64,000 nucleotides of DNA, from the NCBI GenBank assembly GCA_964016885.1, contig OZ024763.1, positions 19,840,001-19,904,000 on the forward strand, read 5' to 3'. The DNA is from Eledone cirrhosa (taxonomy: Eukaryota). The notes beneath the pieces were generated by a model, which was not told the DNA's origin, ran no database searches, and saw only the letters and a list, made by a program, of their open reading frames with translations. Shown here piece by piece: positions 28,821 through 30,603 of this stretch (position 1 is the first letter of the stretch; each line of letters begins with the position of its first letter). A program made the translations under genes and the position numbers.

Positions 28821-29083
28821 GAAAGGATAACAAGGACCATTGATTACTCCTTCATTACATTTATTGGTAGGTGACACGTGTTTCGCCACTGATCAGCTCA
28901 AGGTTTGATCTGTATCGATCTTACCCGACTCAATAATCGGCAGCTTGACGGTCCGTCGAGCCGCCGATTATTGAGTCGGGTAAGATCGATACAGATCGAA
29001 CCTTGAGCTGATCAGTGGCGAAACGCGCGTCACCTACCAATAAATGTAATGAAGGAGTAACCAATCGTCCTTGTTATCCTTTC
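28821..29083. repeat. Palindrome (131-bp arms) carrying a hammerhead 3' half in each arm
   Basis: Centre 28952; GAAAC-GCGC-GTC at 29020-31 (+) and GAAAC-ACGT-GTC on minus in left arm; no CTGANGA. Confidence 0.88.
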
Positions 29084-29212
29084 AATATATATATATATAA
29101 TTAAAGGTTAAACAATGAATAAATCAATGAATAAAGTTTCACAATAGATTAGAAGCAGTGCCATGATTGAATTTTAACCATCAACATAGTCAAGGTATGT
29201 CAAGCATCAACT

Positions 29213-29278
29213 TATTTTATCTGATGAGGATGTACTGTTGAAATAGCTCAGTACCTCTGAAATATGTATAATAAAATA
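29213..29278 (+). ncRNA. Minimal type I hammerhead ribozyme motif
   Basis: Perfect stem I TATTTTAT/ATAAAATA; CTGATGA 29221-27; stem II GTACTG/CAGTAC; GAAA 29259-62; T-ATGT-A-TA; predicted cleavage after 29270. Confidence 0.75.
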
Positions 29279-29334
29279 TACTTGATCACATGAATGTCTA
29301 TATTGGTTAATATTTTGAATTAATACTATATATA

Positions 29335-29887
29335 TATACTAATTATTATACTACAGTTTGTCCATATCGATTTAACGGAGACGAACTGTATTGGCAAAAG
29401 GCCGTGATGTTTAGACACATTTAAATTTCAAAATCAAACCTGTTCCGTAGATAAGTTTAGACTTTAAGATCCAAATATGTTTCGAGTTAAATAAGTGTAG
29501 GAATATCATTATCTTATTAATTTTAACTGCTCCTAGTTTGAGCTGCAAAGCCGCCTCATATATACGACTGTTATTTCTAGCAGTACGGTTATGAGACTAG
29601 TTAGATACTGTAAAGCCATGTGCGCCACGCAGTCTTTTAAATTATTTAGAAGTGAAGCATATCAATTTGTCTCTGGATGTTTACTGAGGAGAGCGGGACA
29701 TGATATTCCTACACTTATTTAACTCGAAACATATTTGGATCTTAAAGTCTAAACTTATCTACGGAACAGGTTTGATTTTGAAATTTAAATGTGTCTAAAC
29801 ATCACAGCCTTTTGCCAATACAGTTCGTCTCCGTTGATTTATTATTTTAAATCGATATGGACAAACTGTAGTATAATAATTAGTATA
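29335..29887. repeat. Inverted repeat (arms 29335-29509 / 29700-29887) overlapping a hammerhead
   Basis: Arms reverse-complementary apart from one indel and a substitution; 190-bp spacer. Confidence 0.88.
29679..29754 (+). ncRNA. Type I hammerhead ribozyme motif
   Basis: Stem I GTTTA/TAAAC; CTGAGGA 29684-90; stem II closed by GAG/CTC; GAAAC 29726-30; quasi-palindromic loop III; GTC 29747-49. Confidence 0.65.
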
Positions 29888-30119
29888 CTTCAATCTGGCT
29901 AAATTTTTCTTTTGCAATATATATACAGATGTCTTGGTATCTGTGTTTCATCACATACATATTAATTTATACACTGCTCAGGGGATATTTTTCTTCATTC
30001 GAGCTGATTCCATTGTAAAAGAATTCATTATCTTATTAATATATATATATATATATATATATTTCGTTTCTGAATTTGTTCTGCAAGATTCTTTATCTGA
30101 AAACGTTGTGGTGAAACCG

Positions 30120-30531
30120 ATATTGTTATACTTTGGGAGGGTCATGTTGCCAATAAGAAACACACGCACCAGTTGCTTTCACTCCAATTTATTATAAATT
30201 AAATTTATAAATTTAAGAATTTATAAATTTCCGGATGTAACACATGCGCAAACTAGGCACGCAACACAAACAAAAAAAAGATGGCGTAGGACAGAACAAA
30301 GGAGAGGCACAAAATAAAGAGAAGAATCCCCAGTCACTGAAGAGGTCACAGAATGTGTGACGAAAGAACTTTTACAATATATGAACAACCGTCCGGTTGT
30401 GGAACCAACCAGCCAACCGGAAATTTATAAATTCTTAAATTTATAAATTTAATTTATAATAAATTGGAGTGAAAGCAACTGGTGCGTGTGTTTCTTATTG
30501 GCAACATGACCCTCCCAAAGTATAACAATAT
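30120..30531. repeat. Inverted repeat (arms 30120-30234 / 30417-30531) enclosing a hammerhead core
   Basis: 115-bp reverse-complementary arms. Confidence 0.9.
30331..30400 (+). ncRNA. Degenerate hammerhead motif
   Basis: CTGAAGA 30337-43, stem II GTCACA/TGTGAC, GAAA 30362-65; stems I and III poorly conserved (candidate GTC 30391-93). Confidence 0.45.
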
Positions 30532-30540
30532 ATATATATA

Positions 30541-30602
30541 TATATAATATAAGATCAAAAGATGGTTAAAAGAGTTCCATGTATTTTATTATGCGCATTT
30601 CA

Positions 30603-30603
<1 letters not shown>
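30541..30603 (-). mobile_element. Fragment of the 56-kb hammerhead element (3' half of HHR)
   Basis: Reverse complement TTGAAATGCGCATAATAAAATACATGGAACTCTTTTAACCATCTTTTGATCTTATA matches 56037-56092. Confidence 0.85.

Follow-up and report, generated by a model that had tools for sequence, protein, structure and literature searches.

What carried several different hammerhead-bearing repeats into one TA microsatellite is the question raised by part of the 64,000-nucleotide stretch of Eledone cirrhosa DNA analysed here (contig OZ024763.1, positions 19,840,001 to 19,904,000; hereafter the window). Between 28717 and 30602 we found five repeat families (modules 1 to 5, or M1–M5) bearing type I hammerhead cores or 3′ halves, all at or near the places given in a preliminary description of the sequence, which had reported five such modules separated by (TA)n. 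With a probability of roughly 0.8, we consider that these families are likely 3′ ends of Penelope-like elements (PLEs), or non-coding passengers, inserted serially at TA runs by a PLE enzyme. For the most part this pattern is already known: repeats that PLEs have moved, carrying minimal hammerheads, leave their truncated and inverted ends in a TA microsatellite. Module 3 and a rule for where paired arms end rise above routine. Coordinates are collected in Table 1.

Table 1. Features of the hammerhead cluster and related repeats in the window
Feature	Position	Strand	Basis or remark
Palindrome of the 3′ end of the window's PLE	22628–23057		0 differences in 192; tail of ~37 nt on right arm
Neptune-type PLE ORF (RT, CxxxxCxxC linker, GIY-YIG), 5′-truncated	23091–25070	+	one frameshift near 24900
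Left-flank LINE, 5′-truncated (RT, PHD-like finger)	26336–28558	+	ends in (TGA)n, then (TA)n
Sixth repeat (M0), between TA runs	28578–28697		related to 56574–56705 (80%, 170 columns with TA flanks)
M1 tail, ~100 nt beyond near end of left arm, up to (TA)n	28717–28820	−	contig comparison
M1 left arm, hammerhead 3′ half	28821–28951	−	GAAAC at 28884
M1 right arm, hammerhead 3′ half 29020–29031	28953–29083	+	end 52 nt past cut site
M2, single 5′-truncated copy, complete type I hammerhead	29099–29326	+	descriptor, shuffles
M3 short inverted arm	29335–29509	−	ends at near site; has helix III and cut site, without CUGANGA box
M3 long arm, one 519-nt unit followed by its first 16 nt again	29506–30040	+	repeat spacing 519; ends at (TA)n
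M3 hammerhead	29673–29807	+	minimum-energy fold, unconstrained, 29670–29810
M4 tail, 59 nt, on short inverted arm	30061–30119	−	covered in all four runs
M4 short inverted arm	30120–30237	−	1 difference in 118 from other arm
M4 long arm, minimal hammerhead 30333–30375	30238–30531	+	motif and contig depth
M5, hammerhead 3′ half, same family as at 56 kb	30546–30602	−	5′ break just before GAAA
Right flank, shorter copy of the left-flank LINE family	30657–31286	+	also between TA runs
Two full hammerheads of the M5 family	55926–56500	+	boxes 55996, 56387; inverted tail-bearing arm 56219–56313

The core places of the modules stood as first described, but their extents did not: module 3 continues to 30040, the tails of modules 1 and 4 reach 28717 and 30061, and a sixth repeat precedes module 1. 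The six repeats are interspersed with (TA)n runs between two copies of one LINE family, the left-hand of which we take to be of the RTE type. All 12 module ends checked lie no more than 3 nt from a run of at least three TA units, compared with about 8% of positions in the background, which bears out for this cluster the proposed enrichment beside (TA)n. In addition, 167 contigs of the public sequencing run X1 leave module 4 at 30120, its near site, into TA-rich letters. Together with the PLE layout described in the available part of PMC8557442, these results upheld the earlier view of a (TA)n pad repeatedly entered by several families. The TA preference does not single out PLEs, since these runs also harbour a LINE, an element of a different class. 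Two LINE copies elsewhere in the window (621–1834 and 2648–3861) form a 1214-nt inverted repeat (93%), and one of them has an endonuclease-like ORF at 974–2773 (−). No hammerhead was recognised in the 28.6-kb copy of the sixth repeat, the middle of which is replaced; its copy at 56 kb has a box-like motif and a GAAA around a small hairpin at ~56639–56670 and may be a decayed hammerhead.

Modules 1 to 4 are high-copy in public sequencing runs, and module 5 has its two full relatives at 56 kb. Contigs and reads were placed on the stretch at 80% likeness (23,028 contigs of X1; 146,405 of the 12.5 million reads of X14), with module 5 excluded from depth placement as a repeat, and deep coverage of modules 1–4 was obtained in four of four runs. 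Summed X1 depth reached ~1.3 million at the centre of module 4, 0.5 million at the module 2 motif, 0.3 million at the module 1 half and 15,000–21,000 at the module 3 motif; these sums are ranks rather than copy numbers, and X14 and X15 are reduced-representation libraries.

Module 1 is a palindrome with a 1-nt centre and arms that are 94% complementary (7 differences in 131, 5 of them CpG-type), each holding only a hammerhead 3′ half (GAAAC, a 4-nt palindrome and GTC) without the CUGANGA box. X1 contigs cover 28720–28866 and 28757–28896 with 19 and 22 other letters, and therefore other copies of this module join arm and tail. The hammerhead of module 2 has its box at 29221–29227, an 8-pair stem I, stem II at 29228–29258, a stem III of the palindromic type and a cut site after 29270; X1 depth was 36,920 at the 5′ end of the module versus 512,947 over the hammerhead. 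In module 4, the arm pair (30120–30237 and 30414–30531), the box at 30337 and stem II agreed with the inverted repeat around a hammerhead core reported before, but stem I is broken in the window copy. An extra base precedes the 6-pair stem II, and stem III has 2 pairs. T30373 reads G in 1,124,824 of 1,129,169 X1 depth (99.6%), four runs agreeing, and a G there gives a 4-pair stem I in the family majority. Pairing changes at the family level were limited to single positions (30373, and 29695, where part of the depth has A-U in place of G-U) among 40 of the 272 difference rows. In the same 40 rows the module 4 spacer (30238–30413) has 11 near-fixed differences from the family and the arms have 0; the terminal part of this module may be more conserved.

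Module 5 was 93–94% identical to the 56-kb copies, as expected of the half-hammerhead of the 56-kb family that it had been called. Both long arms of that family share a common start base (55926 and 56318), which suggests that the element is short and has a constant 5′ end, as opposed to being truncated at random. The modules had also been thought unrelated to each other outside the catalytic core, which fails for modules 2 and 5 because 18 of 21 nt are alike across stem III and stem I. Since the stem I and stem III frame is common, modules 2 and 5 and the motif at 18548 look like one sub-type; the motif lies at 18540–18606 (+) and is a decayed type I hammerhead of this sub-type with the same stem I frame. 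With the sense set by the motif itself, the cut site lies 52, 56, 92 and 160 nt before the near end in modules 1, 2, 3 and 4, respectively. CUGANGA, GAAA and NUH in order, with stems I–III, occur in module 2, module 3 and the 56-kb relatives of module 5; as present in the window, modules 1 and 5 are halves and module 4 is incomplete. The minimal motifs of modules 1, 2, 4 and 5 would cut only as dimers, and the halves would be unable to cut.

The arms of module 3 (29335–29509 and 29700–29887) are set apart by a single substitution and a 13-nt gap over 188 aligned columns. The 16 nt that open the long arm at 29506 recur at 30025–30040, and record 10 of run X4 joins 29833–30024 directly to 29506–29600 with no ORF between, a single contig (depth 8.9) whose run carries a different organism code; no contig with two module 3 hammerheads was seen. 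The longest stop-free stretch of the 519-nt unit, read round, is 77 codons, and the unit folded as a circle gave z −3.05, with 1 of 60 shuffles as good. The simplest reading of the repeat is that the long arm represents a 519-nt head-to-tail or circular unit copied just over one turn.

The minimum-energy hammerhead of this module has an 8+3-pair stem I, a box at 29684–29690, GAAA at 29726, a GUC cut site after 29795, a stem II of 3 pairs with a further 4-pair hairpin, and a helix III (29729–29794) of 28 pairs (18 A-U, 4 G-C and 6 G-U) with a UACG loop. The fold (−35.2 kcal/mol) gave z −3.66 on the plus strand, with 0 of 200 shuffles as good, versus z −0.09 on the minus strand, and the hammerhead box is present on one strand only. 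In the modelled structure, this strand asymmetry and the exact register of the core may point to selection as RNA over a decayed DNA palindrome, and the hammerhead is predicted to be able to cut as a monomer. Two other registers, one with a nearer GTC and a 5-pair stem I (−11.4 kcal/mol) and one with a later GAAA at 29780, were replaced by the minimum-energy fold. By eye, the stem II inner loop (29711–29722) is partly complementary to 29784–29794, the helix III 3′ strand beside the cut site, and this pairing is a possible alternative, inactive fold.

The main rival to a retrozyme reading of module 3 is that all five modules are pLTRs of autonomous PLE families and that the 519-nt spacing is a partial tandem of a long pLTR. 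PLEs do form partial tandems, according to the part of PMC8557442 available; the head-to-tail junction comes from one contig only, and the depth of module 2 declines toward its 5′ end as for truncated long elements. However, the direct join of 30024 to 29506 and the 77-codon limit speak against it, as does the finding that no helix III of this length occurs in 116 loci of PLE relatives (568,581 bases; see below), and we regard this explanation as possible but doubtful. Like a retrozyme, module 3 is short, non-coding and equipped with a single type I hammerhead, and it is likely a retrozyme-like unit inserted in the manner of a PLE. In its complete form, which we offer tentatively and at slightly less than even odds, the proposal is that module 3 is a retrozyme with a circular RNA of 519 nt and a hammerhead able to cut as a monomer, integrated with every mark of a PLE: a TA target, a second arm in inverse orientation and two fixed start sites. 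Both classes named in the preliminary description, PLE pLTRs and non-autonomous retrozymes, seem present, modules 1, 2, 4 and 5 being of the pLTR type and module 3 retrozyme-like.

Modules 1, 3 and 4 are head-to-head arm pairs in which one arm stops at a near site and the other continues to a far site, 100, 153 and 59 nt further on, respectively; the family sequence has a short AT(AT) motif at each near site. The same pattern was found in six of the seven two-armed insertions examined (modules 1, 3 and 4 and the loci at 22.6–23.06, 56.2–56.5 and 59.18–59.37 kb, with the inverted repeats at 21.0, 35.04 and 53.0 kb outside the count), the exception being a 30-nt arm at 55899 that matches neither site. 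The tail is family sequence at 56 kb and, as judged from contigs of other copies, in modules 1, 3 and 4, where such contigs cross the arm-tail junctions. These three modules thus combine an inverted 5′-truncated copy with a one-sided tail, and the insertions lie in (TA)n with a sense hammerhead near the 3′ end, all features of PLEs. At 59176–59368, a palindrome of hammerhead-like 3′ halves has an identical non-canonical base in the cut triplet of both arms, and its right arm is ~76 nt longer, up to (TA)n.

Since the arms are nearly identical (0 differences in 192 at 22.6 kb, 2 in 95, and 1 in 118 in module 4), both arms of a pair probably came from one source copy. This likeness, seen also in module 3 while that module differs from a depth-706 contig by 35 letters and 6 gaps in 302, would fit a fold-back of one cDNA on itself in place of two priming events, as would the 1–6-nt centres of module 1 and the 22.8-kb palindrome and base pairing that the near-site AT(AT) motif might form with the target. 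We nevertheless consider fold-back unlikely: in module 4 and in the 56.2-kb insertion a tail absent from the long arm is present on the short one, which therefore cannot be a copy of the long arm's cDNA, and the spacers of modules 3 and 4 measure 176–190 nt.

Two priming events, the reading that we favour, would proceed as follows. A Neptune-type endonuclease would nick both (TA)n strands, reverse transcription would be primed at two fixed sites near the RNA 3′ end, 37–153 nt apart, one for each target end, and two short cDNAs would end early and then be joined head to head. Each insertion would leave TA on both sides and therefore a new target. For modules 1, 2, 4 and 5 the template would carry a minimal motif; for module 3 it is probably a 519-nt unit, non-coding and either tandem or circular. 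In the accessible part of PMC11167929, a PLE protein, predicted to be a dimer, cuts AT-rich DNA and extends both strands from two internal RNA sites bounding the tail. PMC8557442, as far as available, describes PLE insertions as an inverted 5′-truncated copy with an optional tail of 30–40 bp, often at one end, and a (TA)n bias perhaps set by the CX2-5CxxC linker, and names the origin of inverted insertions as open. The arms found here, one near and one far, tie the in vitro start sites of the former to the inverted insertions of the latter, and the near/far rule over six unrelated insertions, if true, would mean that in vivo a PLE dimer starts copying on each of the target strands, from two sites in the RNA.

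A full type I hammerhead of another family lies at 34855–35017 (+), with its box at 34867, a 92-nt stem II domain and an end in a TA run, and an inverted 3′ half of this family at 34234–34290 (−) is broken just before GAAA and also ends in a TA run. Stem II or its edge is where the 5′ truncations at 30602, at 34287 and at the inner ends of modules 1 and 3 occur, two being no more than 2 nt from GAAA; in these few cases it looks as if copying stalls there.

The window also contains a PLE of its own. Its ORF, read from 23091 to 24926, encodes an RT with 896 relatives (best identity 60%), many with a GIY-YIG domain, and in the aligned relatives C532, C537 and C540 are invariant, matching the Neptune/Nematis linker by alignment rather than by tree; among named proteins, its closest relatives come from bivalves or from samples associated with them. 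We found no hammerhead in the 3′ end of this element, and modules 1–5 contain no ORF and no sequence link to it. Because its 3′ end belongs to another family, with no recognised hammerhead, this PLE shows that such enzymes are present in the genome, not that it moved the modules. 3′ ends of its family occur at 16434–16760, 22628–23024 and 26031–26320; the first two are 99.5% alike and the one after the ORF only 85%, and therefore the palindrome that precedes the ORF likely arose later, in an insertion of its own.

Relatives of this PLE served as a control set of 116 loci (40 on genome contigs and 76 on metagenome contigs, from alignment scans, many of them short or redundant); single-protein pattern scans of genome and metagenome contigs gave 15 and 23 matches, none of them confirmed. 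The control loci held 24 sense-strand hammerhead matches in 18 loci versus 3 antisense, with 98 of the 116 having no sense-strand match. Sixteen of the 24 lay 86–598 nt past the estimated ORF end, 21 had the extra base seen in module 4, and five loci carried the same motif on both sides. Modules 1–5 matched none of the control loci apart from one 37-nt AT-rich match. Many loci (L012–L022, L024 and L027–L040, also L001–L011) are PLE relatives in bacterial-labelled records, with 26 loci in one Stappiaceae-labelled MAG, and probably represent animal host DNA in the bins.

The LINE copies that border the cluster and share its TA runs raise the question of whether the modules were passengers moved, SINE-like, by that family instead of by PLEs. 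The modules lack the LINE 3′ end and the (TGA)n tail, the LINE copies here are single-armed, and a type I hammerhead close to the 3′ end is the PLE pattern, which makes such transport very unlikely.

A further alternative is that the inverted-repeat modules are TA-preferring MITEs or foldback DNA transposons, with the hammerheads as passengers or products of chance. Long terminal inverted repeats with TA flanks would suit it, the core of module 4 lies within a 41-codon open stretch that was considered as a chance source, and the CUGANGA box by itself is no commoner across the whole window than chance predicts (19 versus 19.2; 29 of 60 shuffles reach it). Full motifs, on the other hand, exceeded chance when 28821–30603 was compared with 2000 dinucleotide shuffles in 200-nt blocks, as the proposed check of motif density against shuffled sequence had called for. 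A strict descriptor (both boxes, NUH and three stems) found 1 motif, that of module 2, which 0 of 2000 shuffles reached; a relaxed one found 2 (shuffle mean 0.0055, 0 of 2000), its module 3 match being in the wrong register; and palindromic 3′ halves numbered 3 (mean 0.06, 0 of 2000), two of which are the arms of module 1 and therefore not independent. The strand-specific fold of module 3 and the majority base that completes stem I in module 4 argue in the same direction. Moreover, the symmetric termini of MITEs or foldback elements were not found: modules 2 and 5 are single-arm copies, tails are one-sided and inner arm ends vary. Taken together, these results leave the transposon reading highly improbable.

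Not all tests favoured the hammerheads. A comparison with Rfam models gave no hammerhead among 19 matches at E up to 10 in the cluster and none among the 150 of 326 matches listed for the whole window, the best matches here being of the MITE or microRNA-hairpin sort; no U3-A8 core was found in 28500–30700. In shuffle-fold comparisons, z was −2.14 for module 2, −0.59 for module 4, −0.77 at 56 kb, −1.26 at 34.9 kb and −0.19 at 18.5 kb, and the minimum-energy structure was either not a full hammerhead or not far better than shuffles, with stems I and II forming in the 56-kb motif. Such predicted folding is expected for dimer-type motifs, yet lends them no support. Finally, that the palindromes and junctions are assembly artefacts is hardly credible, because, although no single placed piece covers the whole stretch and the best run contains 0.46 of its words, module 1 has CpG-type changes on both arms and contigs and reads of other copies have the same arm-tail junctions and strand switches.

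The cluster is thus mostly ordinary PLE debris, relevant to annotation in that arm pairs are easily misfiled as MITEs or microRNA hairpins. Module 3 makes a case for PLE carriage of animal retrozymes that is testable from copy structure alone and, if it is indeed a circular-RNA retrozyme, would give direct structural evidence for the mobilisation of retrozymes by PLE enzymes; the available parts of PMC7761336 and bioRxiv 10.64898/2026.07.22.740005 treat PLEs as likely, unproven carriers of these elements. Cephalopod hammerheads look little studied. A title search of the literature found no study of them; the giant squid genome has 235 Rfam hammerhead_1 loci in the accessible part of PMC6962438, and PMC13282606 (2026) reports 31 recently active Penelope-like families in Octopus vulgaris, with the word ribozyme appearing 0 times in its main text as available. 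Their diversity here is unsurprising, because many divergent hammerhead families per genome are the norm in the portion of PMC4209133 at hand.

Against the portions available of the published accounts, the locus most resembles Neptune-type EN+ PLE insertions (PMC8557442 and PMC11167929), with which it shares the inverted short copy on the 5′ side, the tail on one arm, the TA target, the hammerhead near the 3′ end and a Cys-linker PLE in the same window. It differs in its tails of 59–153 nt (published, 30–40 bp) and in having five families in one microsatellite with no ORF linked. The minimal metazoan hammerheads of PMC4209133 have a long stem II, an extra base before it, usually 1–2 pairs in helix III and opposite-strand pairs 100–700 bp apart. 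Modules 1, 2, 4 and 5 share the long stem II and the short or palindromic stem III, module 4 the extra base, and the locus as a whole the many divergent families and opposite-strand pairs; different are the 8-pair stem I of module 2 and the 56-kb family, stem II domains of up to 92 nt (34.9 kb), and module 3, which is not minimal.

Module 3 has its closest counterparts in metazoan non-LTR retrozymes (PMC7229834, PMC7761336 and bioRxiv 10.64898/2026.07.22.740005, each as available), whose invertebrate motifs, according to PMC7761336, mostly have a stable helix III and self-cleave as monomers. It shares with them a non-coding AT-rich unit with one type I hammerhead, a head-to-tail junction (one contig) and a stable circular fold, and differs in its length (519 nt versus invertebrate circles of 170–400 nt, the preprint giving a consensus range of 51–972 bp), its 28-pair helix III, its inverted-arm insertion and in being known here from DNA alone. 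A title search of the literature found no animal hammerhead with a 28-pair helix III and a UACG loop. A long, stable helix III and predicted monomer activity are shared by module 3 with the large-helix-III hammerheads of fungal and protist PLEs in PMC4209133, in the part available; those belong to telomere-associated, endonuclease-less PLEs, whereas module 3 is an animal repeat of TA microsatellites.
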